Origin: an uncultured Bacilli bacterium
Lineage (GTDB): Bacteria > Bacillota_I > Bacilli_A > RF39 > UBA660
Direction: 5' to 3'
NCBI GenBank assembly: GCA_944371905.1
Contig: CALVYA010000006.1
Location: 5,358-69,357 of the forward strand
DNA length: 64,000 nt
Every line of letters starts with the position of its first letter. The first letter of the stretch is position 1. Made by a program: the position numbers and the translations under genes. Under the pieces are notes generated by a model that was not told the DNA's origin, did not search any database, and saw only the letters and a list, made by a program, of their open reading frames with translations. Below are positions 20,224 to 51,795 of the stretch, in pieces.

Positions 20224-21571
20224 AAGAATCACCTTGTCCTTCTCTTTGATAACTTAAAAACGTTGAAGTATCTCTTTTAAATAACAATTCTATAGTTGCA
20301 GTAGGACCATTACGATGCTTAGCAATAATAAATTCACTAATACTTGTATTGGCATCTATTGCTTTTTCTTTATTATAATAATCATCACGATATAAAAACG
20401 CTACAATATCCGCATCTTGTTCAATAGATCCCGATTCTCTTAAATCACTCATAATTGGTCTTTTATTCTCACGAGCATCTACAGCACGTGATAATTGAGC
20501 TAAAGCAACTACAGGAACATTTAATTCCATAGCCATGGTTTTTAAAGATCTAGAAATATCTGATACTTCTTGTTGTCTATTGGCTCCATAATTAGTAGAA
20601 GAAGAAATTAACTGCAGATAATCAATAATTACAATTCCTAATCCTTCTTCACTACTAGCTAGTCTTCTACATTTTGATCTTATTTCTCCAATAGTAATTC
20701 CGGGCGTATCATCCATATACATCTTGGCATCAGATAATTGACTAACTGCTTCGTTTACTCTTTTCCAATCCTCATTCATAAGTTTTCCAGTAGCTAATTT
20801 TTTACCCTCAATTTGACCAAGAGAACTTAACATTCTTGATGCTAATTGTTCTGCGCCCATTTCCATATTAAAAAGTGCTACCGTTTTATCAGTATTAATA
20901 GCAATATTAGTAGCCAAATTTAAAGCAAAAGCTGTTTTTCCCATTGCTGGACGAGCTGCAATAATTATCAACTGATTTCCTTGCAGACCAGTAGTAATAT
21001 TGTCAATATCATACCATCCAGTAGGAATACCTGTAATATCTCCTTTTAAAGCTGCTAATTTTTCTAAATTAGCTTGGGTAGAATCCAATACTTCTTTTAT
21101 TGTTTTAAATTCTGTTGATCTTCTATTTTTAACAATTCCTAAAATCTTTCGTTCCGCTTCATCCAAAGTTTCATTAACATTTCCAAAAGATTGATATGCA
21201 TTCGTTGTAATATCAGTTGAAACTTCAATTAATCTTCTTAATATAGCAGCATCTTCAACTAATTTTATATAATATTCAACATTAGCTGCTGTAGGAACAC
21301 TTTCTAATACTTCGGATAAGTATTCAACTCCACCAACTTCATTTAATAAATTCTTATTTTTTAATTCCGAAGTTATTGTTGTTAAATCAATCGGTTTTTT
21401 ATTTTCATTCATTTCTTGAATTACATTAAAAATTAAAGCATTATTATGATAGTAAAAGCTTTCTTTAGTAAGAGTTTCGCATGCCTTTTCTAACGCATAC
21501 TTAGATAAAAACATTGCGCCAATGACTGATTGTTCCGCTTCAAAATTATTTGGTACATTTTTATTAGGCAT
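20213..21571 (-). CDS. dnaB: Replicative DNA helicase (DnaB family; Bacillus DnaC)
   Basis: ARPAMGKT, IDYLQL, DLRESGSIEQDAD, KHRNGPT. Confidence 0.97.
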   Translation of the reverse strand: MPNKNVPNNFEAEQSVIGAMFLSKYALEKACETLTKESFYYHNNALIFNVIQEMNENKKPIDLTTITSELKNKNLLNEVGGVEYLSEVLESVPTAANVEYYIKLVEDAAILRRLIEVSTDITTNAYQSFGNVNETLDEAERKILGIVKNRRSTEFKTIKEVLDSTQANLEKLAALKGDITGIPTGWYDIDNITTGLQGNQLIIIAARPAMGKTAFALNLATNIAINTDKTVALFNMEMGAEQLASRMLSSLGQIEGKKLATGKLMNEDWKRVNEAVSQLSDAKMYMDDTPGITIGEIRSKCRRLASSEEGLGIVIIDYLQLISSSTNYGANRQQEVSDISRSLKTMAMELNVPVVALAQLSRAVDARENKRPIMSDLRESGSIEQDADIVAFLYRDDYYNKEKAIDANTSISEFIIAKHRNGPTATIELLFKRDTSTFLSYQREGQGDSYES

Positions 21572-21582
21572 GGCTTCACCTC

Positions 21583-22029
21583 CTATTTTTGTAATTTAAC
21601 TTTTATTTTAGCAAAAATATCCTTATATAAATTTATTTGAATTTCATGATAACCTAAACTAGATATAGAATGATCAAATTCTATTTGTTTTTTATCAATA
21701 TTATATCCTTTATGTTCTAACTCATCTTTGATTTGTTTAGCACTAATACTTCCAAAAACACGATCATCTTTTCCGGTTTTAACAATAAAATTAAGTTCAA
21801 TTTTTTCTAGATTTTCTTTCATTTTTTTTGCTTCTTCACGTAATTTAGTGTCATTTTGACGTTGTTGTTCACATTCCCGATTATATTTTTCTAAACTACC
21901 TTCAGTCAATTGAACAGCATAATTATTTTTAATTAAAAAATTTTTTGCGTATCCATCTTTAACTTCTTTGATATCTCCTTTTTTTCCTTGTCCTCTTAAA
22001 TCTTTGGTAAATATTACTTTCACAACCAT
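21583..22029 (-). CDS. rplI: 50S ribosomal protein L9
   Basis: GKKGDIKEVKDGYAKNFL, FGSIS. Confidence 0.96.
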   Translation of the reverse strand: MVVKVIFTKDLRGQGKKGDIKEVKDGYAKNFLIKNNYAVQLTEGSLEKYNRECEQQRQNDTKLREEAKKMKENLEKIELNFIVKTGKDDRVFGSISAKQIKDELEHKGYNIDKKQIEFDHSISSLGYHEIQINLYKDIFAKIKVKLQK

Positions 22030-22039
22030 CCCTCCTCAA

Positions 22040-23008
22040 TTATAAAATTTTTATAATACCTAATATCTCATTTTCTACTTTGTTAACTGATGTATTACTA
22101 AGCTTAGCAGCTGCTTCATGTACATCTCCACCTCCGCCTAGCATACCTAATATTTGTCCAACATTTATTTTTCCCATTGATCTAGCACTAACACCAACTT
22201 TATCTTTATCAATTTTAGCAACCACAAAAGATGCTTCTATTTTATTAAAAAATAATAATGTATCTGCTGTTTTAGCAAGTTCTTCGCGTCTAAATATTTC
22301 AGTTTGTGGTCCCTTAGTTATGGCAATATTATTAATAATTTTTACATTAGTAATCATCTTTTGCCTTTTTATATATTTCTTTAAATCCTGTTTTAATAAA
22401 TACTGTACTTTTGTAGGTTTAGCACCACAGGTAGTAAGATAATATGAATAATAAAAAGTATTGCTATCTGTTTTTAAAACATAATTGTTAGTATCTAAAA
22501 TAATTCCTGATAATAAAATTGTTGCTAAATAACTATCAATAACAAAATTATTTAATTTAAGAAATTCAGTCATCATTTCACAAGTACTAGATGCTTCGTT
22601 ATCAATAATTAATAGTGAATCATGAATTGTACCTTCTCCTTCTCCATGGTGATCTATTACAATTTTGTTATCGAACGCTTGATTCAAATTATCATTTTGT
22701 AATAAATAATCTTTATTAGTATCTAAAATAATTAATAGACTTCCTTGATTTTTTAATGTGATCGCATGCTCCCCTTTAATAAATTTAATAGTATCAGATA
22801 CTTCTTTAATCACTTTAGATACAGCTTTTTCTGTTCTAACATCATCAACAATAACATAAACTTCATTTTTCTTAGTAGAAACGTAACTATACATAGATAA
22901 GCATCCACCTAATGCATCTAAATCTAAATCTTTATGTCCTACCACAAATATACTAGATGCTTTTTCAATCAATTGATTTATTTTTTTATATTGCTCTATT
23001 ATTTTCAT
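22040..23008 (-). CDS. DHH/DHHA1 phosphodiesterase; GdpP catalytic part only
   Basis: HKDLDLD, IDHH, ILDT, SARS, GGG; lies upstream of rplI like gdpP. Confidence 0.8.
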   Translation of the reverse strand: MKIIEQYKKINQLIEKASSIFVVGHKDLDLDALGGCLSMYSYVSTKKNEVYVIVDDVRTEKAVSKVIKEVSDTIKFIKGEHAITLKNQGSLLIILDTNKDYLLQNDNLNQAFDNKIVIDHHGEGEGTIHDSLLIIDNEASSTCEMMTEFLKLNNFVIDSYLATILLSGIILDTNNYVLKTDSNTFYYSYYLTTCGAKPTKVQYLLKQDLKKYIKRQKMITNVKIINNIAITKGPQTEIFRREELAKTADTLLFFNKIEASFVVAKIDKDKVGVSARSMGKINVGQILGMLGGGGDVHEAAAKLSNTSVNKVENEILGIIKIL

Positions 23009-23124
23009 AAACCTCCTGCTAAAACCCCACTATAATTATACATCAAAAAAGAGATTATGTCATTAAGATACCTCTTCTTTTTGCATAAAAAATATGATAA
23101 ATAGATGTTATTTATCATATTTAA

Positions 23125-23415
23125 TTACAAACTCTCTAAACGATATTTTCTAATAACTTTTGTTTTAACATTACCAAGTACAAATCCTATTATCATTGCG
23201 ATAATAAAATATAAATGAATAATTCCATTATTTATCATTCTTAAAATTTCGAAATATAACAACGTATTAATTGTTATAAAAATCAAATTTGTTACTACTC
23301 TAAGTATTAATTTTCCACAAAATAAATGCTTATAAAATAAATTAAACATAAGAGAAAAAAACATTCCAAAAACTAAAGAAAAAATTAGTGATTGAATTTG
23401 AATTTCTAAATTCAT
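23125..23415 (-). CDS. yabQ: Spore cortex protein YabQ-like (short form)
   Basis: Hydrophobic protein with NNGIIHLY motif, coupled to yabP. Confidence 0.7.
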   Translation of the reverse strand: MNLEIQIQSLIFSLVFGMFFSLMFNLFYKHLFCGKLILRVVTNLIFITINTLLYFEILRMINNGIIHLYFIIAMIIGFVLGNVKTKVIRKYRLESL

Positions 23416-23708
23416 TATTTAAATAACCTATTAAAAATACTATTTTCTTTATCTTTAGTTTTTCCCTCTTCTGCATATGTAAAACTTTTAATTAAACCTT
23501 TGATGGATACATTACCTTGCATCGTATCTAGCTTAATTAATTCTAAATCCTCACCTTTAATAATTAAATATCCCATTGTAGTTTCCATAAGGAATTCTTC
23601 ACTATCAAAATTATCAATTTTCTTTACTCCTGTTATTATTATGTTTTTTCGTTCAATAACACTGATTCCATGATTGTAATTAGTTATACTATTATCTGTC
23701 TTGTCCAT
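23415..23708 (-). CDS. yabP: Sporulation protein YabP
   Basis: RKNIIITGVKKIDNFD..ETTMGYLIIKG. Confidence 0.92.
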   Translation of the reverse strand: MDKTDNSITNYNHGISVIERKNIIITGVKKIDNFDSEEFLMETTMGYLIIKGEDLELIKLDTMQGNVSIKGLIKSFTYAEEGKTKDKENSIFNRLFK

Positions 23709-23726
23709 ATTAATTCCTCCTAATTA

Positions 23727-23754
23727 ACTATACGAAAAAAGAAAATTAATATGA
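23727..23754 (-). promoter_or_regulatory. Putative sigmaE promoter of yabPQ
   Basis: Minus strand TCATATT-N13-CGTATAGT. Confidence 0.55.
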
Positions 23755-23755
23755 C

Positions 23756-23784
23756 AAAAAAACAACTTAGATAAGTTGTTTTTT
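23756..23784 (-). terminator. Intrinsic terminator after spoVG
   Basis: AAAAAACAACTTA-G-ATAAGTTGTTTTTT inverted repeat. Confidence 0.7.
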
Positions 23785-23789
23785 AGCAA

Positions 23790-24062
23790 TTATTCTTCAG
23801 AGGGTTGATCAGCATTTTTATATGCTTCAAAAATAGCCTCTTCAAACAATGCGCGACCCTCAGGATTAATTGGATGTGCTATATCACGATACCCTCCTGT
23901 AGCTGTTTTTCTACTTGGCATTGCGATAAATAGTCCATTATCTCCTTCAATAATTCTAATATCATGTACTGCAAAACTATCGTCTATTAATACAGACGCA
24001 ATTCCTTTCATACGTGAGTTTTCTTTTTCAATTTTTCGCACGTTTACAGATGTAATTTTCAT
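23790..24062 (-). CDS. spoVG: SpoVG
   Basis: FAVHDIRIIEG, LFIAMPSRK, RDIAHPIN. Confidence 0.96.
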   Translation of the reverse strand: MKITSVNVRKIEKENSRMKGIASVLIDDSFAVHDIRIIEGDNGLFIAMPSRKTATGGYRDIAHPINPEGRALFEEAIFEAYKNADQPSEE

Positions 24063-24154
24063 TTGCCTATCCTCCCTCTTAAAGTATGTGTCATATTTAC
24101 ATAACTTTATAATATGATCTTATACTAAAATATAATAAAATGCAACTTTTTTCT

Positions 24155-24379
24155 CTATTTATCAACAAAAATCTCTAAACTTTCAGTTAAAATATCTGTA
24201 TAACTAAAAGACCGAATCTTTGCATTATCATCATCTACTCTAATTAGAAAGACATAATTATAAGTATTTTCAATTGTACCTTTAAACACTTCAGTTTGAT
24301 TTCTGCTGCCATTAAATTTAAAATTTAATAATTTCCCTTTATTTTGTTCTAAATCATTTTTTATTTTTTCTATATTCAT
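24155..24379 (-). CDS. veg: Veg family protein
   Basis: NGSRN, GTIENTY, SFSYTDILT. Confidence 0.9.
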   Translation of the reverse strand: MNIEKIKNDLEQNKGKLLNFKFNGSRNQTEVFKGTIENTYNYVFLIRVDDDNAKIRSFSYTDILTESLEIFVDK

Positions 24380-25155
24380 CTTGGATACCCCGTATACATA
24401 GTACCATTAGTTATAATCCCCCCGATACCTTCTTCTTTATATTTAGTTTTATCAATTATTTTAAGTAAATCAATAGGTTTACTTTTATCAGATAAAGCAA
24501 TAGAAGAAGCAATAATGGCTGGATCTAAAGCATGCAAGTTAACTCTTTTAGGACTACTTGCAAAATTTGCCCCTGCTTTAATTAATTCTTCATAATCCGA
24601 TTGACACGCTCCAGCAATGATAATTAATTTATCATGAGATTTTTCATAATTTCTAGCTTCTTTTACAGCATCTACAAAATTTTTACTATTTTTATAACTA
24701 TTAATATCACTTATTTTTCCATTTTTCTTATAGAAAACGTCATGACCTGTAATCACTACAATATCCGGTTTTAAGTCCTCTAAATATTTTTCTATTTCAA
24801 GAGGTATTTCTTTTTCTTTTAGATTAACTCCATACGCCATTATTTTTAATTTTTTATAAAAATTCATACATCGTTCTAAATATTCTGTATCACCATCAAA
24901 ATGTAAAATTTTACCTGGCAAATAAAAATATTCGTTACGATCTAAATCTATGGAAGTACTTATTCTATCAATAAGTTCATTATCATCTATTCTAGCATCT
25001 TCCACAAGTTTTAAGTCATCCATACTACTATCAGCATACAATCTTATATTAAGTCCTTTCAAATATGCGACTTTATCATTTACCTCAATTATTTTAAAAA
25101 CAATATCATTATTATAAGAATTTCTAGTTACCAGATCTCCAACTTTAAAAAACAT
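24376..25155 (-). CDS. yabG: Sporulation peptidase YabG
   Basis: GDLVTRNSY, PGKILHFDGD, ITGHD, AGACQS, ANFASSP. Confidence 0.95.
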   Translation of the reverse strand: MFFKVGDLVTRNSYNNDIVFKIIEVNDKVAYLKGLNIRLYADSSMDDLKLVEDARIDDNELIDRISTSIDLDRNEYFYLPGKILHFDGDTEYLERCMNFYKKLKIMAYGVNLKEKEIPLEIEKYLEDLKPDIVVITGHDVFYKKNGKISDINSYKNSKNFVDAVKEARNYEKSHDKLIIIAGACQSDYEELIKAGANFASSPKRVNLHALDPAIIASSIALSDKSKPIDLLKIIDKTKYKEEGIGGIITNGTMYTGYPR

Positions 25156-25197
25156 ATAATCATCCCCAGATAATTATATGTTTTTTATTTATAATTA

Positions 25198-26022
25198 TTA
25201 TAAGTTATTACTTAAATCAACAAATATATTTAACGATAATTGTTCTGCTCTTGAATTTAAATCAAATCCATATTGTTTTAATATCTGCTCGGTCTTATCC
25301 AAATTATATCCTTTTAAATTGTTACGTAAATTTTTTCTTTTTTGAGCAAAACTATCTCGTACTAATTTATAAAATTTATTCAAATCCTTTACTTTCATTT
25401 TTTCTTTTTTGCATAATTCTAATACTATACTATCTACATTAGGTTTAGGAATAAAAACATTACGGCTTACATCCATTACTTTGGTTATATCAAAATTATA
25501 TTGCAAGAAAACACTTAAAGAATTATAATCTTTTGAATTAGGTTTGGCGTTAAAACGATCTCCTACTTCTTTTTGAACCATAATAATAATTTTATCTACA
25601 TCTATCTTATCTTCAATAATTTTAGTAATAATAGGAGTAGTAATATAATAAGGTAAATTGGCAATTAAATACAAATGATTGTACTCATATTGATTTAGTA
25701 TGTCTTGCAAATTAACTTTCAAAAAATCCTCATAAATAATTTCAACATTATTATATTCTTTTAAATTATTAGATAAAATATCTCTTAAACTAGAATCTAT
25801 TTCAAAACAAACTACTTTATCTGCAATCTTACACAACTTATAAGTTAAAGAACCACTCCCAGGTCCTACTTCAATTACTAATGATCTTTCTTTTATATTA
25901 GCTCTATTAATTATATTATTAATAATATTTTCGTCAACAATAAAATTTTGACCAAATTTCTTTTTAAAACTGAAATGATACTCTTTTAAATTATTATTAA
26001 CTTCTGTTGGTGAATATTTCAT
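25198..26022 (-). CDS. rsmA: 16S rRNA dimethyladenosine transferase
   Basis: KKFGQNF, EVGPGSG, ANLPYYITTP. Confidence 0.96.
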   Translation of the reverse strand: MKYSPTEVNNNLKEYHFSFKKKFGQNFIVDENIINNIINRANIKERSLVIEVGPGSGSLTYKLCKIADKVVCFEIDSSLRDILSNNLKEYNNVEIIYEDFLKVNLQDILNQYEYNHLYLIANLPYYITTPIITKIIEDKIDVDKIIIMVQKEVGDRFNAKPNSKDYNSLSVFLQYNFDITKVMDVSRNVFIPKPNVDSIVLELCKKEKMKVKDLNKFYKLVRDSFAQKRKNLRNNLKGYNLDKTEQILKQYGFDLNSRAEQLSLNIFVDLSNNL

Positions 26023-26060
26023 ACTTACTCCTTATAAAATAAAAGTACATTCCTGTACTT

Positions 26061-26636
26061 TTACCATCCCCACCTTATGATTTCATAAGTTACATTTTGT
26101 CTTCCTATAGAACTAGAAGTTCTTTCGCTAGGCATTAATAAATCCATTAAAGTTCCTTTAATTGCACCACCGCGATCTAATACTACAGCGGTTATTTGTT
26201 CTCCAAGTCTTCCTCCGGATATTTTAACTACCGTTCCGCAAGGAATATTGCCATCCGCAGCAACTATTCTTAATGTTCCATAGTCATTATCTTCAAAATA
26301 TATATTTCCATTTCTAACATCATTCCTTGGAGGACATGATACTTTTCCAGAACATCCTACACAATCCGGACCATAGGCAGTCATTGTACCTTGAAATATT
26401 ACTGGATTAGTTTGACCATATTGTAATATTTCTGATATATTATTAGCATAAATTGTTTCTACTACTTCAGCATTATATTTAGAAACTAAATGTACAGCTT
26501 GAATTGAATTAATACTACTTACATTATAAGTAATTACTTCTTCTTTTGTATTACCACTAATTATTATAAAAAACATAATAATTAATATCAATATTACGCA
26601 AAGCTGGTTTCTGATCATATATAATATATTTTTCAT
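26061..26636 (-). CDS. Membrane-anchored 3D-domain protein (YabE position)
   Basis: TAY, IVAAD, LDRGGAIKG..MDL 3D motif; N-terminal TM. Confidence 0.8.
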   Translation of the reverse strand: MKNILYMIRNQLCVILILIIMFFIIISGNTKEEVITYNVSSINSIQAVHLVSKYNAEVVETIYANNISEILQYGQTNPVIFQGTMTAYGPDCVGCSGKVSCPPRNDVRNGNIYFEDNDYGTLRIVAADGNIPCGTVVKISGGRLGEQITAVVLDRGGAIKGTLMDLLMPSERTSSSIGRQNVTYEIIRWGW

Positions 26637-26673
26637 ACTTTCTCCTCGTCTTTACAAAAATATAATAACACAC

Positions 26674-27426
26674 TCAAATTTTTAAGTCAAATATTCTAAT
26701 TACATTAGAAGAGGTAATCTTTTCCACTGTTTCAATGGATATTTTTTTACTTTCGGCCACTTTTTTCGCTATAATAGGAATATATTTTGGTTCATTTATT
26801 TGACCTCTAAAAGGTTCAGGAGTTAAATAAGGACTATCTGTTTCCAAAACAATATTTTCCATTGGAATTTGTTCAATAACAGAAGATAGATTACTATTTT
26901 TGAAAGTAATTACACCTCCAATTCCTAAACAGTAACCTAATTTTGTATAGAGCCTTGCTACTTCAAGACTAGCAGTAAAACAATGGATTATACCTTTTAA
27001 ATTATATTTTTCTAACAAATTATAAGTATCTTGAAAAGCATCTCTAGAATGAATAACAACTGGCATATGTAATTTTTCTGCTATTTCTAATTGATTAGTA
27101 AACAATTTTAATTGTTGATCTTTGTTATCTTTTCCATAATAATAATCTAACCCTATTTCGCCTATTCCTATTACCTTATTGTTAGTTTTAACCACATTTT
27201 CAAGCCATAACAAATCATTATCACTAACTACATTAGCTTCACTAGGATGAAATCCTACAGTGACATAAACATTATCATATTTCTTTGTGATTTCTAAAGC
27301 ATCTAATATTGCTTGTTTATCGCAACCACTAACAATTAAGTATTTCACATTATTGTCATACGCTTCTCTAATTATTTTTCCTACTTTATCATCATTATTC
27401 ATATGTAAATGGGTATCTATTAACAT
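26674..27426 (-). CDS. tatD: TatD family nuclease
   Basis: DTHLH, GEIGLDY, IHSRDA, HCF, ETDSPY. Confidence 0.95.
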   Translation of the reverse strand: MLIDTHLHMNNDDKVGKIIREAYDNNVKYLIVSGCDKQAILDALEITKKYDNVYVTVGFHPSEANVVSDNDLLWLENVVKTNNKVIGIGEIGLDYYYGKDNKDQQLKLFTNQLEIAEKLHMPVVIHSRDAFQDTYNLLEKYNLKGIIHCFTASLEVARLYTKLGYCLGIGGVITFKNSNLSSVIEQIPMENIVLETDSPYLTPEPFRGQINEPKYIPIIAKKVAESKKISIETVEKITSSNVIRIFDLKI

Positions 27427-27485
27427 ATTCCACCTCTTATATTAAATATATTATATCAAAAAAATAGATTATCATATTATATAAT

Positions 27486-29027
27486 CTACTTTTCGTTAAT
27501 TTCTTTTAGTTTCTCGTCTTTATTAATTCGTTGAAATAATGGTTGTGGATCATTTGTATTATAAATATTATTATTTTTATATTCTCTTCTATTATCACTG
27601 ATATTTAATTGCTTTAAAATATTATCGCTAGTACTAGGTAAAAACGGTTTTAAAAAAATGGCACAAACTCTAATGGATTCTAATAAATTATAAATAACTG
27701 TCATTAATCTTTCTTTATTATTATCTTCCTTAGCTAAAGACCATGGCATAGTATCATCTATATATTTGTTGCTCTTTCTCAATACCTCAAAAATTTCATC
27801 CAAAGCACCACCTATTTCCAAGCGACTCATTTTATCATCTACTTTTTCATCTAATAAATTAATACTATTAATTAAATCCTTATCCAATAAATCCGATTTA
27901 TCTAAATATTTAACATTACCATCAAAATATTTGTTCGCCATAGTAATTGTTCGATTAACCAAATTACCTAATATATTAGCTAAATCACTATTAATTCTAT
28001 CAATTAATAATTCATAAGTAAGACTTCCATCATTAGCATAAGGAATTTCATGCAAAACATAGTATCTAATAGCATCTACACCGAACCACTTTACTAAATC
28101 ATCTGCATACATAATATTTCCTTTGGATTTACTCATCTTATCATTTCCAAATAACAACCAAGGATGCCCAAATATTTGTTTTGGAAGAGGTAAATCCAAT
28201 GACATTAAAAAGCAAGGCCAATAAATAGTGTGGAATCTAATAATATCTTTACCTATTAAATGCAAATCTGCCGGCCAATATTTTTTAAATTCTTCCGTAG
28301 GATTATCTACATCGTACCCAATGTTAGTAATGTAATTAGTAAGAGCATCTAACCAAACATATATAACATGTTTAGGATCAAAATCAACTGGTATCCCCCA
28401 CTTGAATGAAGTTCTAGAAACGCATAAATCTTGCAATCCTGGTTTAATGAAATTATTAATCATTTCGTTCTTTCTAGAATCTGGTTTAATAAAATCAGGA
28501 TGATTATTATAATATTCGACTAATCTATCTTGATATTTAGACAATTTAAAAAAGTAAGCTTCTTCACTAGCATAATGCACTTCACGCCCACAGTCAGGAC
28601 ATTTACCATCAATCAATTGACTTTCTGTGAAAAAAGATTCACATGGAGTACAATATAATCCTTCATATTTTCCTAAATAGATATCCCCTTTATCATACAT
28701 CTTTTTAAATATTTTTTGTACTGTTTTTTCATGATTAGGATCTGTCGTTCTTACAAAGCGATCATAACTAGTATTCATAACATCCCATATTCTTTTAATC
28801 TCTTTTGCTACTTTGTCTACATACTCTTGTGGAGTAATTCCTTGTTCTCTAGCTTTAATTTCTATCTTTTCCCCATGTTCATCAGTTCCAGTTTGAAAAT
28901 AAACATCAAACCCTTTTTGTCTTTTATATCTAGCAATAGCATCTGCTAATACAATTTCATAAGTATTACCAATATGAGGTTTACCTGAAGTATATGCTAT
29001 AGCAGTACTAATATAATATTTTTCCAT
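27486..29027 (-). CDS. metG: Methionyl-tRNA synthetase (short form lacking the C-terminal tRNA-binding domain)
   Basis: HIGN, GTDEHG, Zn knuckle CTPC..CPDC, KMSKS; start refined to the ATG after AGGAGG. Confidence 0.96.
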   Translation of the reverse strand: MEKYYISTAIAYTSGKPHIGNTYEIVLADAIARYKRQKGFDVYFQTGTDEHGEKIEIKAREQGITPQEYVDKVAKEIKRIWDVMNTSYDRFVRTTDPNHEKTVQKIFKKMYDKGDIYLGKYEGLYCTPCESFFTESQLIDGKCPDCGREVHYASEEAYFFKLSKYQDRLVEYYNNHPDFIKPDSRKNEMINNFIKPGLQDLCVSRTSFKWGIPVDFDPKHVIYVWLDALTNYITNIGYDVDNPTEEFKKYWPADLHLIGKDIIRFHTIYWPCFLMSLDLPLPKQIFGHPWLLFGNDKMSKSKGNIMYADDLVKWFGVDAIRYYVLHEIPYANDGSLTYELLIDRINSDLANILGNLVNRTITMANKYFDGNVKYLDKSDLLDKDLINSINLLDEKVDDKMSRLEIGGALDEIFEVLRKSNKYIDDTMPWSLAKEDNNKERLMTVIYNLLESIRVCAIFLKPFLPSTSDNILKQLNISDNRREYKNNNIYNTNDPQPLFQRINKDEKLKEINEK

Positions 29028-29028
29028 A

Positions 29029-29514
29029 TTATTCCTCCTTATTAGTAGATCCAAGTCCACCTTTTCTTTCGTTTTTTATTTCTTCTTCATTATCTATGGT
29101 TAAAAATTTAATAAATATTCCTTGGCAAATAGCATCGCCTTTTTTTACAATGTAATCTTTATCTCCTTCATTTTGTAATTTTAACCAAGCATGACCTTCA
29201 TTATTAGGATTATTATAATAATCACTTTCAAAAATTCCAATTTGATTACACATCCGTACATTATATTTAAACCCCATACTACTTCTAACGACTAACATTA
29301 ACATCTCGTCAGTATTCATATTGAATTTTATTCCAGTTGGAATCTTTTTAGATTCATTTGGTTTTAAAATAAAATCATATAAAGAAAAAAAATCATAACC
29401 AGCACTATATTTTGTACTTCTTTTTGGTAATGAAAAATTATTATATAATTCTTCATCATCACTACAGTCTTTTTTAAATTGCTCAAAACTGATTTTTTCA
29501 AAATATCTAGGCAC
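29029..29514 (-). CDS. dut: Trimeric dUTPase
   Basis: SAGYD, RSS, ESDYYNN, QGIF, RKGGLGST; GTG start after GGAGG. Confidence 0.9.
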   Translation of the reverse strand: MPRYFEKISFEQFKKDCSDDEELYNNFSLPKRSTKYSAGYDFFSLYDFILKPNESKKIPTGIKFNMNTDEMLMLVVRSSMGFKYNVRMCNQIGIFESDYYNNPNNEGHAWLKLQNEGDKDYIVKKGDAICQGIFIKFLTIDNEEEIKNERKGGLGSTNKEE

Positions 29515-29529
29515 CTTTATCAACCTCCA

Positions 29530-29745
29530 AAAATAAAACACAGATAAAACCTCCTTAAGGACGAAATATCCGTGTTACCACCTTAATTCATAGAAAAACT
29601 ATGCACTCAATACATTAACGCTGTCAACGTATTAGCCTACATATCGACTAATAAGACTAAGGAACCATCTTCTGTAATACTTACACTTTTTCCACCAACC
29701 AAAGCTCTCTATTATAAGTTAGTTACATCTCTTTCCCTCAAAGTC
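29530..29745 (-). promoter_or_regulatory. T-box riboswitch with Met (AUG) specifier
   Basis: Minus strand: stem I AGAGAG and GGTGGAA motifs, specifier loop GAAG-ATG-G (29668-29666), T-box AAGGTGGTAACACG (29584-29571), terminator CACGGATA/TATCTGTG plus U-tract. Confidence 0.88.
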
Positions 29746-29781
29746 ATAATAAATATGTATTTTATTATAACATCATTATTC

Positions 29782-30312
29782 CTATTCTTCAATATGTTTT
29801 CCAAAAAATTGAGAAGCGATTTGTGCAGTCTTTATTTCCAAACTACTTATTTTATCATCCAAAGACAAAATTATAATGAGACCAATAGAGTCTCCATTGG
29901 AAATAATAGTATTAATAACATAACTGCAATACTCTTGCTTTTCATTAATAATACTTACTTCTTTCATTTCTTCTTCAACAATATTACTTCTTTTATTAAT
30001 ACACTCTTCTAAATAACTACTAATAGGTTTATTTAAATATTCTTTTTTTAGAGTACCTGCACATGCTATTATATTATCTCGGTCTGTTATTATAATATCT
30101 TTTTTTAATGCGTTATAAATAGAATCAACATATACTTCAGCAAAGTGTAATAAATTATTCATGGAAGAATGTTTTTTTAAAGCAACCATATCTTTCTCAA
30201 CAAATATTTCTAATGAGGTACCATCTTTAATTCCAAGAGTTCTTCGTATTTCTTTAGGGATTACAACTCTACCTAAATCATCTATTCTTCTAACTACTCC
30301 TGTTGTTTCCAT
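29782..30312 (-). CDS. spoVT: Stage V sporulation protein T
   Basis: TGVVRRIDDLGRVVIPKEIRRTL AbrB domain plus GAF-like C-terminus. Confidence 0.95.
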   Translation of the reverse strand: METTGVVRRIDDLGRVVIPKEIRRTLGIKDGTSLEIFVEKDMVALKKHSSMNNLLHFAEVYVDSIYNALKKDIIITDRDNIIACAGTLKKEYLNKPISSYLEECINKRSNIVEEEMKEVSIINEKQEYCSYVINTIISNGDSIGLIIILSLDDKISSLEIKTAQIASQFFGKHIEE

Positions 30313-30340
30313 AGCAAATTACCCTCTTTCTTTCACACAT

Positions 30341-30369
30341 TAGTATTTGTTGTGAATTAAAAATTATAC
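30341..30369 (-). promoter_or_regulatory. Putative sigmaG promoter of spoVT
   Basis: Minus strand GTATA-N17-AATACTA. Confidence 0.6.
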
Positions 30370-30481
30370 CTACTACCAGTAAATAATTTTTTATTTACTA
30401 CATAAATTATAATCTCTTTAGGGGTATATTTCCTTTGGTAAATTTTACCATTTGTAGTGCAAAAAAAAACTCATAATGAGT

Positions 30482-31159
30482 TTATTTCAATTCTTGTAAA
30501 CTTTTAATTTTAACACTTTCCTTTTTTATAATACGACTCTTGTCTAAATCTAAATATTTCTTATACGCCTCATCTGCCATGTTTTTTAAAGTTTGATTTC
30601 GATGTCTACTTTCACTACTAATTCTATTAAATAATACTTGAGAAAAATTTATATTTATAGTTGTTAAAATATCTTGATGCATTTCTTCATTAACACAAGA
30701 ATACGCGTTTGTTAATTCATTATATAAAGATATTTCTGTTTCCTCTTTGATTGTTAAATTTAAATTTTCTTCAAAAGGAAGTTCGTTGTTATCTATTTGT
30801 TTGTTATATTCTTTTAAAAATTTTTTAGTATTACTTACTTTATTTTCTTGATTACTAATGTAATCTTTATTGCTGTCTCGTTTTTCATTAATTACAATAA
30901 TTGTACTTTCTAACATTGAATTTTTACTGTTATTTAAGATATGTTTTATAACTTCATCATCTATATCTACAGAATATTTATCATAAATTTTTTTCAAAGA
31001 AGACAATAATTTGGCTATTTCTATTTTTATAATATTTTTAGTCGCTAATTTAAAAGTATCAGCATTATTATCTAAATCTAATCTTAATTTATCAAAAAAC
31101 ATTTTTTGATGTTTTTCACTAAATATTTCATCAATATCTATTTCTACATTATTATTCAT
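30482..31159 (-). CDS. Hypothetical helical protein
   Basis: Long ORF filling the mfd-spoVT gap; AGGTG RBS before ATG 31159; no recognised motif. Confidence 0.7.
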   Translation of the reverse strand: MNNNVEIDIDEIFSEKHQKMFFDKLRLDLDNNADTFKLATKNIIKIEIAKLLSSLKKIYDKYSVDIDDEVIKHILNNSKNSMLESTIIVINEKRDSNKDYISNQENKVSNTKKFLKEYNKQIDNNELPFEENLNLTIKEETEISLYNELTNAYSCVNEEMHQDILTTININFSQVLFNRISSESRHRNQTLKNMADEAYKKYLDLDKSRIIKKESVKIKSLQELK

Positions 31160-39386: not shown

Positions 39387-41012
39387 TTATTTTATCTCTA
39401 TATCAACTGAATCAAACAGTTCATATATTTTATTATCAATAATTTCTTGATCTTTCCTAACTTCCTTTTTAGAATTATTATCAGTTAATACAATGTATTT
39501 ATCATCTATAATATTATATTTTTCATTATTATTCAATTTTTTTATATATTCAGTTCTTGCTTCATTCCATTCTGAATCTGAAATTGCTACTATATGATAG
39601 TTTAATTGCAAATAATCATTTAAAATCTTTTCTATTTTCTTATATTCTTCATTCAATTTATCTGCAAGGGACGAATAAAGATAATCTATAACTACATATT
39701 CATTACTTGCTACTACCGGAGATCCATCTAACAAATTACATATAATAGCACCATTTTCTTTATCAAAAGCATAATTTTTCAATTCTAACCATTTATTTTT
39801 TATATTATTTAAAAATTCTTTATTAGCATTAACAAAAGTATTATTGATTCTAATAGTTTTAAAATCGGCGTTTGAAAATTTATTTGTTTCTTTCAAATTT
39901 TCTTCTTTTACTATGGTATCATTTTCTAGTTTAATAGGATCAACACATTGCTCTTCTGTCTTTTTTTCAGAAAATATTTCCCGGGAAATATTTTCTATAT
40001 TATTCGCTATATCTAATAAACCCACTTCAAAAATTATTTTTTTACTAACAGAACTACTTTTCATTTTGTCATATATCTTGATCATTTCAGATAGTAAATC
40101 TTGCAATTCTTTATTTCTATCTTTCTTAATAAAAATTCTATCATCCAATTCTTTTATAATATCTTCTACTATATAAATTAAATCATAGTTATTTTGATAT
40201 AATGTATTCACTCGATCAATAGAATTGATAATATCTTTTGAAAGTATTAGATCAATCAGTGAAATAATCTCTTTTTTTGAAGGTTTATCACACACTGTTC
40301 TAACATCTTCCAATTCTATTTTGCTATTACAATAAGAATTAATTTTTTCTAATAAACTCAAAGCATCACGCATACATCCGTCAGAGGAAGAAATAATTTC
40401 ATCTATTGCTTCATTCGAAATTTCTATTTTTTCTTTATCACATATTTCTATAATTCTATTTTTCATATCGATAGAAGATATTTTTTTAAATTCTAGAACT
40501 TGACATCTAGACAATATAGTAGATGGTACTTTCTGAATCTCTGTTGTAGCTAATATAAATATAACATGAGATGGAGGCTCTTCTAATGTCTTTAACAAGG
40601 CATTAAAAGCGCCAATAGATAACATATGTACCTCATCAATAATATAAATTTTATATTTTAAAAAAGAAGGAACAATATTAATTTTACTTTTTAACTCTCT
40701 TATTTCATCGACTCCATTATTAGAAGCAGCATCAACTTCAATAATATCTACACATTCTTTTGACGAGGAATTAAGACACGAATCACATTGATTACAAGGA
40801 TTCAAATTGATTAAATTTTCACAATTAATTGTTCGAGCAAATATCTTAGCAATACTTGTTTTTCCAGTTCCCCTTGGTCCAGTAAATAAATATGCATGCG
40901 AAATATTATTATTATTAATAGCATTTTTTAAAATCGTAGTTATTACTTTCTGACCAGAAACTTCATCAAAATTAAAAGGTCTATATTTTCTATATATTGC
41001 TAGATGACTCAT
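39387..41012 (-). CDS. dnaX: DNA polymerase III gamma/tau
   Basis: YRKYRP, GPRGTGKT, DAASN, DEVH, SRC. Confidence 0.96.
   Translation of the reverse strand: MSHLAIYRKYRPFNFDEVSGQKVITTILKNAINNNNISHAYLFTGPRGTGKTSIAKIFARTINCENLINLNPCNQCDSCLNSSSKECVDIIEVDAASNNGVDEIRELKSKINIVPSFLKYKIYIIDEVHMLSIGAFNALLKTLEEPPSHVIFILATTEIQKVPSTILSRCQVLEFKKISSIDMKNRIIEICDKEKIEISNEAIDEIISSSDGCMRDALSLLEKINSYCNSKIELEDVRTVCDKPSKKEIISLIDLILSKDIINSIDRVNTLYQNNYDLIYIVEDIIKELDDRIFIKKDRNKELQDLLSEMIKIYDKMKSSSVSKKIIFEVGLLDIANNIENISREIFSEKKTEEQCVDPIKLENDTIVKEENLKETNKFSNADFKTIRINNTFVNANKEFLNNIKNKWLELKNYAFDKENGAIICNLLDGSPVVASNEYVVIDYLYSSLADKLNEEYKKIEKILNDYLQLNYHIVAISDSEWNEARTEYIKKLNNNEKYNIIDDKYIVLTDNNSKKEVRKDQEIIDNKIYELFDSVDIEIK
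39969..39996. promoter_or_regulatory. Noc-binding site (NBS) inside dnaX
   Basis: 28-bp perfect palindrome AGAAAATATTTCCCGGGAAATATTTTCT containing the NBS consensus ATTTCCCGGGAAAT. Confidence 0.85.
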
Positions 41013-41486: not shown

Positions 41487-41514
41487 ATAAAATATTTCCC
41501 GGGAAATATTTTAT
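41487..41514. promoter_or_regulatory. Noc-binding site
   Basis: ATAAAATATTTCCCGGGAAATATTTTAT perfect palindrome. Confidence 0.88.
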
Positions 41515-41764: not shown

Positions 41765-41853
41765 TCAAAATATTGTTATCTTTAATATATATTATTCTAC
41801 TAATTTATTTATATAAAGTAATAATTAAAATTTATATTTTAATAGTATTTACA

Positions 41854-41881
41854 AAAAAATATTTCCCGGGAAATATTTTTT
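41854..41881. promoter_or_regulatory. Noc-binding site
   Basis: AAAAAATATTTCCCGGGAAATATTTTTT perfect palindrome. Confidence 0.88.
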
Positions 41882-44974: not shown

Positions 44975-48011
<3,037 letters not shown>

Positions 48012-48080
48012 TTAAATCCCCTAAAAATGCCCATATAACCACCTTTACCTATAACCATAGTCCTCTATACATACATTTAT

Positions 48081-48089
48081 ATTATAGCA
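48081..48089 (-). promoter_or_regulatory. Extended -10 sigmaA promoter for recF-gyrB-gyrA
   Basis: Minus strand TGCTATAAT downstream of the comK terminator. Confidence 0.55.
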
Positions 48090-48104
48090 CATATTTTTTA
48101 AATA

Positions 48105-48132
48105 AAAAAGAAAAAAGAGGTCACCCTCTTTT
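48105..48132 (-). terminator. Intrinsic terminator after the comK-like gene
   Basis: AAAAGAGG-GTGA-CCTCTTTT followed by a U-tract. Confidence 0.7.
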
Positions 48133-48577
48133 ATTTTTTCGATATTCTTTTCGTTATCATAGCATCTAACATACCCGCTCTAAGTAATTGATTTTCAAAA
48201 GATAATTTAGAAATATCAAATTCTTTTTCTATGCCATTTTGAAATATCACTTTAGTATTATTACCTATTTTTTCTCTTTTTTTTACATAATTATGATTTA
48301 TCCAACAGCAATCTTCACTAGTATAAGATTTTGTCGGAAAAAAGATTATTTTTTCTGATTCTTCAATAAGAAGTGGTAATTTATAACTAAAATTTAATAT
48401 CTTCTGAGCAGCTTTAATTCTACCATCATATGTACTACCATAATACTCACAATTTTCTTCCATAATGTTAAAAGTAGAAGAAGGTATTAAATATTCTTTT
48501 GTTAATTCTATTACTTTCGTATTTTCTGAATCGATTGGTATTAATGCTATAGTTTCATCATTAATCTCATATGTCAT
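48131..48577 (-). CDS. comK: ComK-family competence transcription factor
   Basis: YEINDETIALIP, CEYYGSTYDGR, KLPLLI, IFFPTKS, CCWIN match the ComK family pattern. Confidence 0.82.
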   Translation of the reverse strand: MTYEINDETIALIPIDSENTKVIELTKEYLIPSSTFNIMEENCEYYGSTYDGRIKAAQKILNFSYKLPLLIEESEKIIFFPTKSYTSEDCCWINHNYVKKREKIGNNTKVIFQNGIEKEFDISKLSFENQLLRAGMLDAMITKRISKK

Positions 48578-48642
48578 AAAGTATCCCCCCATTTCTAATT
48601 TTTTGTAATTTAAATTACGGGGATTATTATAATTATATTTAT

Positions 48643-48669
48643 TGTCGAATTATGTCGAAATATGACGAA
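48643..48669. promoter_or_regulatory. Three tandem Spo0A boxes in the comK promoter region
   Basis: TGTCGAA (48643), TGTCGAA (48653), TGACGAA (48663); consensus TGNCGAA. Confidence 0.8.
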
Positions 48670-48681
48670 TTTTGCATTTTT

Positions 48682-49803
48682 TTAATAAGTTCTTATAGGT
48701 AATACTAGTTGTTCAAGTGTATCATCTTCTTTTCCACGAATAATAATTGGTTTTATTTCTCCAAATAATGATATCTTAGCATAACTAGTTTCAAAAGATT
48801 TTAATGCATCCATCATATATTTAGCACTAAATGAAATCTTGATTTCTTGATCATTATCTTTTTCAATTTTCATTTTTTCTTCTACTCTACCTATTTCAGC
48901 AGAGGAAGATTTTACTAATAATGTATCTCCATTAACTTCAAAAGTAACAACATTTTTTTCCTTATCAGAAGTTAAAATACTAGCTCTATCTATAACATTA
49001 TATAATTCGTCCAAATTAGCTGTAAAACTTAAAATAGGATCTGTTGGCCATAAATTTGATGTATTTGGATAATTTCCATTAATTAATCGTGATTGAAATA
49101 ATAGATTATTATATTTAAACAATATTTTATTATTAAATATATGCATTTCTATATTATCCTCACCAAAATCTAATATTTTATTAAATTCTATTAAATTTTT
49201 ACTAGGTACTACAAAATTATAATTCTCTTCGGCTATTTTATCTAAATTTATTGTTTTTTTAGCCAAACGATAAGAATCTGTAGCATTACATTCCAATAAA
49301 TCCCCTACTATTTTAAAATTAATTCCTGTTAAAACAGGTCTTGATTCATCTGCTGATGTGGCAAATGAAGTTTGATTAATAAGACTGTGGAAAATTTTAT
49401 TATTAATATATATTATTTTTTTACTTTCTTCTAATGAAATATTAGGATATTCATTTTTGTTAATACCATTTAAATTAAATTCACTATTTTCAGTGTATAT
49501 AATTATTTTTAATTCATCTATTACTTCAATATTAATAAATTCGTCAGGTAACTTTCTTACAATATCTAATATGTACTTACCTTGAATAATAATACTACCT
49601 TCTTTTTCTATAGTCATATCTTCGTTTGTTGGTATAAATGTTTGAATAGTAATATCATTATCTGAAGCTGTTAATGTTAATCCGTTACTATTTAATTCGA
49701 ATTTAATTCCAGATAAAATGGGAATTAAGTTTTTAGTAGATATAGCTTTTGATACTTTGTTTAAACTTTCTAACAATATTTCTTTTTTAATTTTTAATTT
49801 CAT
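48682..49803 (-). CDS. dnaN: DNA polymerase III beta clamp
   Basis: PILSGI, SRPVLTG, ATDSYRLA, LVLPIR. Confidence 0.97.
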   Translation of the reverse strand: MKLKIKKEILLESLNKVSKAISTKNLIPILSGIKFELNSNGLTLTASDNDITIQTFIPTNEDMTIEKEGSIIIQGKYILDIVRKLPDEFINIEVIDELKIIIYTENSEFNLNGINKNEYPNISLEESKKIIYINNKIFHSLINQTSFATSADESRPVLTGINFKIVGDLLECNATDSYRLAKKTINLDKIAEENYNFVVPSKNLIEFNKILDFGEDNIEMHIFNNKILFKYNNLLFQSRLINGNYPNTSNLWPTDPILSFTANLDELYNVIDRASILTSDKEKNVVTFEVNGDTLLVKSSSAEIGRVEEKMKIEKDNDQEIKISFSAKYMMDALKSFETSYAKISLFGEIKPIIIRGKEDDTLEQLVLPIRTY

Positions 49804-49928
49804 ATTTATTCCTTCTTTCTTTATTATTATTTTTATTATTAGAGTGGAAATTGTTGAAAACTTATTTTTTCTCTAATATACAAATGATTTTATAAATTTA
49901 TCCTGTGGAAAAATAGTTGATAAGTGAA
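49804..49928. other. oriC, dnaA-dnaN part (probable unwinding region)
   Basis: DnaA-box-like TGTTGAAAA (49852), TGTGGAAAA (49904) and AGTTGATAA (49915), next to (TTA)n DnaA-trio-like repeats at about 49821-49841. Confidence 0.75.
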
Positions 49929-51308
49929 TTATTTAATCTCTTTTTCTAGTATTTCTATAGTTTTAGACAAATCTTTATTTATTGAAATTTCTCTTTCAAT
50001 TTTTTCACAGGAATGCATTACTGTTGAGTGATCTTTTCCTCCAAATTCAATTCCAATTTTAGGAAAAGATTCGTCTGTTAATTTTCTACATAAGTACATA
50101 GCAATTTGTCGTGGAAATGATATATTAGAATTTCTTTTTTTAGATTTTAAATCATCAATAGATATTTTAAAATATTCTGCTACTACCTTTTGTATTTTGT
50201 TGATATCATTTTTTTCACTTATGCCTTTATTAATATAGTCTTTTAAAGCTTCCATTGCAAGATTTAAATCAATTTCTGCTCCCATAATGGTCGAATATGC
50301 AACTAATCTTGTAACAGAACCTTCCAGCATCCTAATATCACTACCTAAATTGGAAGCCATATATTCAATAACTTGCTCTGGAATATATTTATTAATAGCT
50401 TCCCCAGCAATTCTTTTTTTCAAAATAGCAACTCTAAGTTCAAAATCTGGGGGATATATATCAACAGGTAATCCCCAACAAAATCTCGTTCTTAAGCGAT
50501 CTTCTAGTATTTTTAAATCATCGGGAGAACGATCAGAAGAAATTATTATTTGTTTGTTATCACCATACAAATTATTAAATGTGTGAAAAAATTCTTTTTG
50601 TGTTTCTGTTGCACCACCTAAATATTGAATGTCGTCAATGATGAGAACATCAATATTTCTATACTTTTGCTTAAAGAAGTCAACATAACTAAAATTCGTT
50701 CCAGATTCATCTTTCTTATTAATTCCAATAAAATCAGATACAAATTGTTCACTAGTTACATATAAAACTTTTTTATCAGAGTTTTTAGTAATATAATTTC
50801 CTATTGCATGCATTAAATGAGTTTTACCCAGTCCACTGTTTCCATAAATAAATAACGGATTATACATTTTTCCAGGATTTTCCGCAACTGCAAGAGCAGC
50901 TGCATGAGCAAATTTATTACTATTTCCTACAATAAAATTATCAAAAGTATATTTTGAATTTAAGTTTGTATTTAAATATAAATGTTCATTATTATATAAA
51001 CTGTTACTGGTATTTTCCACATGATTGTGAATATTATTTTCTTCTTGAAATTCATCTTCAATGTCTTCTTTTAATAATAATTCAATTTCTATATTTTTTC
51101 CCGTTAATTCTAAAAATGAGTTTTGTAACATTTCCTTATAATTTAATAGGATATGATTTTTATGAATAGCATAAGGAACAATAATTCTAGCAGTTCCATT
51201 TTTTATGTCATACAATTCTGTTTCTTCAAACCAAGTTTGGAAGGACAATGAATTTATTTCTGATTTAATTTTTTCTAAAATGTTAGACCATAAAACAGAT
51301 GTATTCAT
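49929..51308 (-). CDS. dnaA: Chromosomal replication initiator
   Basis: NPLFIYGNSGLGKTHL, IDDIQ, RQIAMYL, GGKDHSTV. Confidence 0.98.
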   Translation of the reverse strand: MNTSVLWSNILEKIKSEINSLSFQTWFEETELYDIKNGTARIIVPYAIHKNHILLNYKEMLQNSFLELTGKNIEIELLLKEDIEDEFQEENNIHNHVENTSNSLYNNEHLYLNTNLNSKYTFDNFIVGNSNKFAHAAALAVAENPGKMYNPLFIYGNSGLGKTHLMHAIGNYITKNSDKKVLYVTSEQFVSDFIGINKKDESGTNFSYVDFFKQKYRNIDVLIIDDIQYLGGATETQKEFFHTFNNLYGDNKQIIISSDRSPDDLKILEDRLRTRFCWGLPVDIYPPDFELRVAILKKRIAGEAINKYIPEQVIEYMASNLGSDIRMLEGSVTRLVAYSTIMGAEIDLNLAMEALKDYINKGISEKNDINKIQKVVAEYFKISIDDLKSKKRNSNISFPRQIAMYLCRKLTDESFPKIGIEFGGKDHSTVMHSCEKIEREISINKDLSKTIEILEKEIK

Positions 51309-51339
51309 CCTTATCACTCCCCCCATTAATACGAATAAT

Positions 51340-51560
51340 TAATACAAATTCATTTTAACTTATCCTGTTGAAAAAATAAAGTAAAAACCGTAAAAAAAAG
51401 ATATCAACAAGTAATCAACAGAGTTTTCAACAAAAAATGTGCATAAATAATAAGAAAAAAATTACTTTTTCACATTTTCCACAAATTTTTATTCATAACT
51501 ATGAATAATGTTATCCACAAGTATGTTAATTTTGTTGATAACTATTTTTAAAATGAATTG
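51340..51560. other. oriC, rpmH-dnaA DnaA-box cluster
   Basis: Perfect TTATCCACA (51511) plus TTTTCAACA, TGTGCATAA, TTTTCCACA and TGTTGATAA; gene orientation switches here. Confidence 0.85.
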
Positions 51561-51617
51561 ACAAATATGATAATTCTTTATTATAATAGGGTAGATTTTA
51601 GTTTGGAGGTGGAATGA

Positions 51618-51737: not shown

Positions 51738-51795
51738 ATAGTTCCACTGGTAACAGTGGCTTTTTTGTTATATACTGTGTATGGAGATGTGTGTT

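Follow-up and report, generated by a model that had tools for sequence, protein, structure and literature searches.

How is a sporulation gene kept silent during growth when the gene just upstream of it is a housekeeping gene read in the same direction? Sporulation genes placed among housekeeping genes need such silence, and the protection of a single locus from read-through transcription has rarely been addressed. We considered this question for yabG in a 64,000-nucleotide (nt) stretch of DNA from an uncultured Bacilli bacterium (contig CALVYA010000006.1, positions 5,358 to 69,357 of the forward strand; hereafter the window). The window has a G+C content of 24-29%, and the genome as a whole (a 1.29-Mb assembly) is 27% GC. 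The housekeeping gene rsmA lies 5' of yabG on the same strand, and its stop codon is 10 nt ahead of a long hairpin that includes the yabG start codon. We propose, with a probability of roughly 0.6, that this hairpin is a read-through insulator built of three overlapping signals. Promoter, terminator and translation start would be superimposed, and the 5' end of the transcript would decide whether the message can be read. The elements on which the argument turns are as follows.

24376..25155, minus strand: yabG, sporulation-specific cysteine protease (Pfam Peptidase_U57, E 2.2e-94, profile positions 1-280 of 280).
25198..26022, minus strand: open reading frame of rsmA, 16S rRNA dimethyladenosine transferase (Pfam RrnaAD, E 1.5e-67).
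25146..25187, minus strand: the hairpin, with 5' arm 25187..25169, loop 25168..25165 (UGGG) and 3' arm 25164..25146.
25180-25172, minus strand: CATA-type -10 box CATATAATT inside the 5' arm, the putative mother-cell (sigma-E/K type) promoter of yabG.
G25167, minus strand: predicted sporulation transcription start site, the second loop base, placed by the distance of C+13 in eight Clostridioides difficile promoters.
25163..25167, minus strand: ribosome-binding core GGGGA, mostly in the loop; GGAGA or GGTGA stands at the equivalent place in relatives.
25155..25153, minus strand: yabG start codon ATG, within the 3' arm and paired with the CAT of the -10 box.
25152..25147, minus strand: U6 run, codons 2-3 (Phe-Phe), paired with A6 at 25181-25186.

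The initial annotation of this DNA, made from its letters alone, had described a 19-bp stem with one G-U pair and a TGGG loop, and the sequence is exactly so: 19 contiguous pairs, one of them U-G and 2 of them G-C, enclose a 4-nt loop. Folded alone, the 42-nt hairpin reaches -17.6 kcal/mol (z -8.72), and 0/200 shuffles fold equally well; in a 76-nt context it reaches -18.5 kcal/mol (z -4.0, 0/200 shuffles). The 3' arm had been said to hold the start codon, the U6 run and part of the ribosome site. The start codon and the U6 run are indeed there, while the core of the ribosome site is mostly loop, its GGGG spanning the loop and only the first base of the 3' arm, and the paired part consists of the start codon and spacer. 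A scan of both strands of the genome for contiguous stems with loops of 3-8 nt found 339 stems of at least 12 bp, compared with 69-74 in each of three block shuffles. Only 2 stems in the genome are 19 bp long, one of which is the yabG hairpin, and the three shuffled genomes together held a single stem of 18 bp and none of 19. The hairpin is not among the 25 longest of the 73 inverted repeats listed for the window, which have lower-identity arms, and the Rfam 15 covariance models gave 0 matches at E up to 1 on either strand of 24000-26200.

The 5' arm had also been proposed to contain a -10 element of the sigmaK/sigmaE type. The sequence CATATAAT occupies 25180..25173 of the minus strand, within this arm. 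The -10 consensus of mother-cell promoters is CATA---T(A), with which the C. difficile promoters discussed below are consistent, and CATATAATT conforms to it. The yabG upstream regions compared come from relatives among the uncultured Bacilli of the gut, with genomes of ~1 Mb; 'Acholeplasma sp. CAG:878' and 'Ca. Faecisoma' are among them. A CATA box stands just 5' of the ribosome site in 82/85 yabG loci and in 76/80 loci added afterwards, and its spacing is fixed, the first G of the ribosome site following the C of CATA by 13 nt in 56/82 loci and by 14 nt in 16/82. In many relatives rsmA is followed by a classical terminator whose T-run directly adjoins the CATA box, so that no further promoter would fit in those loci. 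Judged from this conservation, CATATAAT is a real promoter element. The genome encodes both sigK and spoIIGA-sigE.

To place the start site we used a promoter table for C. difficile that gives 100 nt ending at +1 (PMC7438776), of which 13 protein-gene rows assigned to SigE or SigK, plus yabG, were used. The C of CATA lies exactly 13 nt before +1 in spoIID, spoIIID, CD630_01290, CD630_10631, CD630_10632, CD630_10670 and CD630_26410, and yabG is the eighth CATA promoter in these rows with +1 at C+13 (the 14th base, counting C as 1). CATA is absent near +1 in 5/13 rows (glmS, CD630_01560 twice, cotA and spoIVA), and in the low-scoring row for cwlD it occurs in another register. The same table assigns the mapped start site of C. 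difficile yabG to SigK and gives it a 28-nt leader (PMC7438776), and a further study describes the gene as dependent on sigma-E and sigma-K (PMC10681294). Transferred to our locus, the C+13 rule predicts a start at G25167 and a leader of 12 nt that begins with the ribosome site. Since this +1 lies in the loop, the sporulation mRNA would be without the whole 5' arm, in agreement with the initial annotation, which had expected a transcript starting past the -10 element. By analogy with these promoters we infer both the sporulation start site and the sigma factor that would act at yabG.

The two predicted forms of the transcript fold very differently. The long RNA that enters from rsmA retains the hairpin, and the short, predicted sporulation RNA reaches -5.8 kcal/mol (z +1.27), folding worse than 178/200 shuffles. 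Folding of both forms and covariation in orthologous loci had been named as checks, and the orthologous loci of the relatives do show compensatory changes. Of 82 loci, 35 form a hairpin class with at least 8 inner and at least 3 outer pairs. Among the remaining 47, most show 2-6 inner pairs, while 7 combine at least 8 inner pairs with fewer than 3 outer ones. The stem is kept by differing sequences: A-U with MFF as the first residues in this genus, G-C with MLF (the commonest), AGA/TCT with MSF, and TGG/CCA with MPF. Altered boxes are accompanied by matching spacers, namely CATAAGAT with ATCTT, CATATTAT with ATAAT, and CATAGAAT or CATAAAAT with ATTTT.

We measured this in two ways. In a gap-free alignment of 34 sequences, picked solely by their 28-nt spacing from box to start, 78.1% of the cells are paired, compared with 72.4 +/- 0.7% after shuffling, and 0/500 shuffles reach the observed share. 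The covariation score of this alignment is 0.192, against 0.097 when shuffled (again 0/500) and 0.070-0.095 with slid partners. Both sides change in 10/19 pairs; columns 8/37, for example, are G-C in 13 sequences and A-U in 11. In a test on 126 distinct yabG loci without class selection, the five variable box positions all pair with the 5 nt before the start codon in 54 loci, whereas the shuffled mean is 26.9 and the maximum in 2000 shuffles is 38. Here CATATAAT goes with ATTAT in 37/65 loci, CATAGAAT with ATTTT in 4/5 and CATAAGAT with ATCTT in 2/2. The three outer pairs, between the 3 bases before the box and codon 2, average 2.01 compared with 1.37 +/- 0.08, above every shuffle. For comparison, ATTAT precedes 18/939 start codons in this genome (1.9%), against 57% of the yabG starts behind CATATAAT.

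The pairing also reaches into the coding sequence. Codons 2-3 in the hairpin relatives read CTTTTT in 18, TTTTTT in 12, TCTTTT in 3, CCATTT in 1 and AAATTT in 1. Leucine at codon 2 is encoded by CTT in 18/18 hairpin loci, although CTT makes up 10.3% of the leucine codons of the genome and TTA 67.5%. The nucleotides rather than the residue are therefore selected, the C closing the stem with G and the UU lengthening the U-run. The pairs in register that are not Watson-Crick comprise 70 G-U, 9 A-C and 68 others, and the excess of G-U over A-C therefore favors RNA of the sense strand as the selected molecule; the U-G pair itself is conserved in 25/33 rows. Taken together, these comparisons indicate that the pairing is under selection in the relatives.

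Does the hairpin end transcription, or does it hide the start codon? We found terminator-like hairpins at 307/1414 open reading frame ends in this genome, with medians of 10 bp for the stem, 0.22 for stem GC and -8.0 kcal/mol for the energy. An A-tract begins 62% of the 307, and stem GC is at most 0.16 in a quarter. The yabG hairpin is longer and more stable than all 307, the most stable of which reaches -15.9 kcal/mol. The long hairpins of the genome are mostly an A-run, a stem and a U-run directly 3' of genes, and the yabG hairpin is likewise a stable stem-loop 10 nt downstream of the co-directional rsmA. The U6 run follows a 12-bp core stem (-10.1 kcal/mol), yet U6 itself pairs with A6. Further support for a terminator role is provided by the relatives. 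Of the non-hairpin loci, 25/47 carry a T-run of at least 5 no more than 14 nt ahead of the box, compared with only 2/35 hairpin loci. The median gap from the rsmA stop to the yabG start is 42 nt (n=32) in hairpin loci versus 53.5 nt (n=42) in the others (Mann-Whitney p 0.0013, without correction for kinship). In four loci (L047, L053, L070 and L075) the rsmA frame enters the yabG -10 box and stops at its TAA, 18 nt from the ATG. The scarcity of T-run terminators, the shorter gaps and the rsmA stops within the box would all follow if the hairpin took over the job of the rsmA terminator, and they suggest that it has replaced that terminator in this genus.

Termination is unlikely to be its only function. 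Inner pairing is present behind a separate T-run terminator in L082, L089 and L201 (10 inner pairs), and it is also present (9-11 pairs) where codon 2 breaks the U-run, in L191, L193, L200, L219 and L224. Because the pairing is found where it cannot terminate, hiding of the start codon in leaked transcripts seems to be a separate function. As in fold-back inhibition, the initiation region lies in the 3' arm, where pairing takes in the spacer of 9 nt, the start codon and codons 2-3. The initial annotation had spoken of occlusion of the ribosome site; this holds for the start codon and spacer, which are sequestered, and not for the core, which is in the loop. From the sequence we infer that the yabG hairpin would terminate transcripts, occlude the start codon or do both.

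Start-codon hairpins of this kind are rare in the genome. Of the 810 stems of at least 11 bp found in an unbiased scan, only 8 carry, within the 3' arm, a start codon that follows a ribosome site. Ranked by length, these 8 are headed by the stems of yabG (19 bp), sigK (18 bp) and spoIIID (17 bp).

G000:C1:64709-64751 (locus L090 1468-1510), outside the window: sigK hairpin, 18 bp, -15.1 kcal/mol, z -3.1.
1272-1313 of the window, minus strand: spoIIID hairpin, 17 bp, with the start codon in the 3' arm.

The sigK gene, identified by TIGR02846 (301 bits, above the cut-off), repeats the layout of yabG: the 5' arm contains the CATA box, the loop the ribosome site, and the 3' arm ATG with U7, and this protein also starts MFF. 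Its upstream neighbor, at a gap of 41 nt, is a co-directional open reading frame of 468 aa, which on reading of its sequence, without a family search, appears to be a murE-like ligase. Members of the genus and of two further genera share this layout, and 11/29 sigK loci keep at least 8 inner pairs through box variants with matching spacers. The spoIIID gene, the best match to TIGR02844 (90.5 bits, below the cut-off), is arranged differently. A conserved CATA box lies 45 nt upstream of its ATG, directly after the spoIIQ terminator, and the hairpin therefore lies inside the predicted leader, where it may be a translational or stability element. Two shorter hairpins, of 14 bp and 11 bp, belong to genes on G000:C17 and G000:C3 (a 546-aa protein and a response regulator). 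In both, a TATAAT-type -10 box is part of the 5' arm and the 3' arm ends with the start codon; sigma-A promoters whose leaders are very short may also follow the box-in-stem principle.

Starting from what is observed, namely a structure that is conserved and co-varies among relatives and a -10 box conserved together with its spacing, we propose the following mechanism. RNA reading through from rsmA would hold both arms, and its copy of the -10 sequence would pair with the spacer, the start codon and the first two codons of yabG. The A6/U6 extension would supply the A-tract, stem and U-tract shape of the intrinsic terminators of this genome. Read-through RNA would thus be terminated within codons 2-4 of yabG or else have its start codon locked away. 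In the sporulating mother cell, RNA polymerase (with sigma-E and/or sigma-K) would read the CATA box as DNA and start at about G25167, and the resulting mRNA, with no 5' arm and the ribosome site first, would be open to translation. The initial annotation had put forward much the same idea, and each of its parts that can be checked by computation is borne out. In the wider family the pairing of box and start occurs alone, and its basic role appears to be fold-back occlusion; this genus and several others would have extended it to a full terminator that replaces the separate one of rsmA.

Several observations weigh against this proposal. Every base of the U-run is paired and the sequence beyond the full stem is AAGUU; our criterion for terminators at open reading frame ends, which wants T-rich sequence beyond the maximal stem, missed the hairpin. 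Terminators are also commonly sought by a G+C-rich stem, and this one has only 2 G-C pairs; a simple terminator scan requiring at least 3 passes over it. With the core of the ribosome site in the loop, occlusion may be partial. No clear -35 element accompanies the box: the 'AC' of sigma-K promoters is missing at a distance of 16-18 nt, and the 22 nt ahead of the box contain no C at all. Both hairpin and non-hairpin classes show a weak A-rich pattern at -20 to -16, and ATA, the sigma-E element, is expected by chance in such composition. The predicted leader of 12 nt is short, though leaders at the mapped sigma-E promoters in the C. difficile rows used run from 11 to 20 nt (11, 16 and 20 nt). 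As spoIIID shows, a hairpin close to a start codon can serve a different purpose in this genome. A single RNA run (assembled contigs, word share 0.05) compared with 21500-30500 covers nothing at the hairpin; it yields short pieces elsewhere in this region, such as 24039-24279, from which we draw no conclusion. Finally, the hairpin and non-hairpin classes used for the T-run and gap comparisons are defined by the pairing itself, and the relatives are kin, so that the shuffle statistics overstate independence. The distinct compensated states are more robust evidence than those statistics.

Could the hairpin simply be the intrinsic terminator of rsmA, pushed onto the promoter and start of yabG by genome reduction, with the overlap tolerated and no isoform-specific effect on translation? 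Its A-tract, AU-rich stem and U-tract give it the same shape as the other terminator-like hairpins of the genome, and the shorter intergenic gaps, the rsmA stops within the -10 box in some relatives and the distribution of separate T-runs between the two classes would be explained equally well. We nevertheless consider this unlikely, because inner pairing also occurs where it is unable to terminate, either behind a separate T-run or with the U-run broken by codon 2, and because the box variant co-varies with the spacer, which is needless for a terminator that could be placed anywhere. A different kind of objection comes from spoIIID, whose start-sequestering 17-bp hairpin within a predicted leader is our main reason for retaining the possibility that the true yabG promoter is further upstream and that the hairpin, in the 5' end of the mRNA, is a stabilizer or a translational switch opened by a sporulation factor. 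At yabG this is quite improbable. Within the genus, the sequence ahead of the A-tract shows no conservation, the upstream gene differs in 4/9 species, and the terminator T-run adjoins the CATA box in non-hairpin relatives, where no other promoter fits; moreover, the distance from box to ribosome site is fixed at the value expected for +1.

The inverted repeat might instead act as double-stranded DNA, either as the operator of a dimeric regulator or as mirrored CATA boxes forming divergent mother-cell promoters. It is centered on the predicted +1, the plus strand also reads CATATAAT at 25153-25160, and symmetric changes in the half-sites would keep a palindrome just as they keep a stem. That G-U pairs, which break a palindrome, outnumber A-C pairs 70 to 9, with the U-G pair kept in 25/33 rows, makes such a role very improbable, as do the outer arms, an A-run and a U-run as in terminators, and the co-directional arrangement of all neighbors, which leaves no gene on the opposite strand to use a divergent promoter. 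A chance palindrome in AT-rich DNA is barely credible. CAT and ATG yield 3 pairs automatically, the reverse complement of CATATAAT is ATTATATG, which lets a box beside a start codon pair in part at no cost, and at this GC content the shuffled genomes still hold ~70 stems of at least 12 bp; however, none of those stems reaches 19 bp and just one reaches 18 bp, the excess of ATTAT before yabG starts over all other starts is large, and several compensatory states exist. We therefore return to the read-through insulator as our preferred explanation. A broader idea, which we offer tentatively and regard as somewhat doubtful, is that in this large family at least yabG and sigK, as mother-cell genes behind housekeeping genes, share a hairpin grammar of -10 box, ribosome site and start codon that would end incoming transcription, silence what leaks through and vanish from the native message, and that would dictate the protein beginnings MFF, MLF, MSF and MPF.

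The surroundings of the hairpin are uniform in direction. The minus-strand genes around it are metG, tatD, a 3D-domain gene, rsmA, yabG, veg, spoVG, yabP and yabQ, and this order from metG to yabQ matches the origin-proximal region of Bacillus subtilis. The yabG protein begins MFFKVGDLVTR, which aligns with its relatives. The plus-strand copy of CATATAAT points antisense into rsmA, and a mirrored mother-cell -10 box is possible there. Among 11 loci checked, the genes 5' of yabG are co-directional in 10, the eleventh having only 558 nt of flank, and they are not the same genes throughout, as the differences among the nine species of the genus show. Immediately downstream of yabG is veg.

24155..24379, minus strand: open reading frame of veg, whose start overlaps the yabG stop (ATGA, 24376-24379).

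The distance between veg and yabG is -7 to +11 nt in 10/10 hairpin-class loci, in 5/8 of the non-hairpin loci scored and in 3 unclassified loci. Inspection by eye of the 3' end of yabG revealed no convincing sigma-A promoter for veg. Given their overlap, the two genes are probably co-transcribed here. Tight linkage across most of the family suggests a yabG-veg operon, in which respect B. subtilis presumably differs. We had considered veg as a discriminator between termination and occlusion and rejected it, since it adjoins yabG in both classes, even where a classical terminator lies upstream.

In a species of the same genus (L227; G006:C9:400-12800) yabG is split by an insertion of ~11.3 kb that carries two large serine recombinases beside the 3' half of yabG and an ABC ATPase, and looks like a skin-type intervening element. 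The hairpin is retained upstream of the split 5' half (L028). A yabG 'yin' element has been reported in C. botulinum (PMC10747680), and the insertion appears similar to it. Elsewhere in the window, perfect 14+14-nt palindromes centered on CCCGGG, with an arm that reads ..AAATATTTCCC, are present at 39969-39996, 41487-41514 and 41841-41880, three copies in 2 kb. GC skew changes from about -0.3 to +0.28 over ~48000-54000 of the window, consistent with a replication origin or terminus near 51 kb.

At yabG an RNA structure constrains the N-terminal codons of a protein, to the point that the rare leucine codon CTT is always chosen, and the case illustrates how regulatory signals are packed in the 1-Mb genomes of a lineage known from metagenomes alone. 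If the design is general, it could help to find mother-cell promoters when genomes of uncultured spore-formers are annotated, and it could be put to use as a small insulator part in synthetic constructs.

How does this arrangement compare with known systems? The Rho-independent terminators of this same genome resemble it in position, directly after a co-directional gene, and in build, with a short loop on an AU-rich stem between an A-run and a U-run. The yabG hairpin differs from them in holding a start codon together with a ribosome site and a promoter element, and in that its U-tract is two sense codons. The sigma-E/sigma-K dependent yabG promoter of C. difficile (PMC10681294, PMC7438776) and that of B. 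subtilis, reportedly described by Takamatsu in 2000, likewise have a CATA-type -10 element just upstream of yabG, and the gene lies downstream of the rsmA/ksgA region. The C. difficile leader differs, at 28 nt rather than the 12 nt predicted here, and we saw no pairing between box and start codon in the tabulated upstream sequence of that gene (PMC7438776). In IS200 a terminator at the left end acts against impinging transcription and a separate stem-loop sequesters the ribosome site (PMC4513863). The likeness is that incoming transcription is stopped and the translation start is also hidden by RNA structure; the difference is that IS200 uses two hairpins, the second of which is in the native mRNA, whereas at yabG one hairpin is proposed to do both jobs and to be absent from the native mRNA.

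A further parallel is fold-back inhibition of the IS10 and IS50 transposase genes, in which an inverted repeat is said to bracket the element's own transcription start site (reportedly by Davis, Simons and Kleckner in 1985). In these elements, transcripts from outside carry both arms and the start is hidden, and native transcripts carry the 3' arm only and are translated. The logic at yabG would be the same, with the +1 in the loop being a prediction here. The differences are that the gene concerned is a transposase in IS10 and IS50 and a chromosomal developmental gene here, that the 5' arm is here the -10 box itself, that the yabG hairpin is also terminator-like, and that its 3' arm enters the coding sequence and fixes codons 2-3. 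We found no description of this arrangement in the literature, in a search limited to open-access papers. What is new here is a -10 box that doubles as the 5' arm, a single hairpin that would act as both terminator and occluder, a U-tract made of sense codons, and the use of such a design in the developmental genes of a spore-former.

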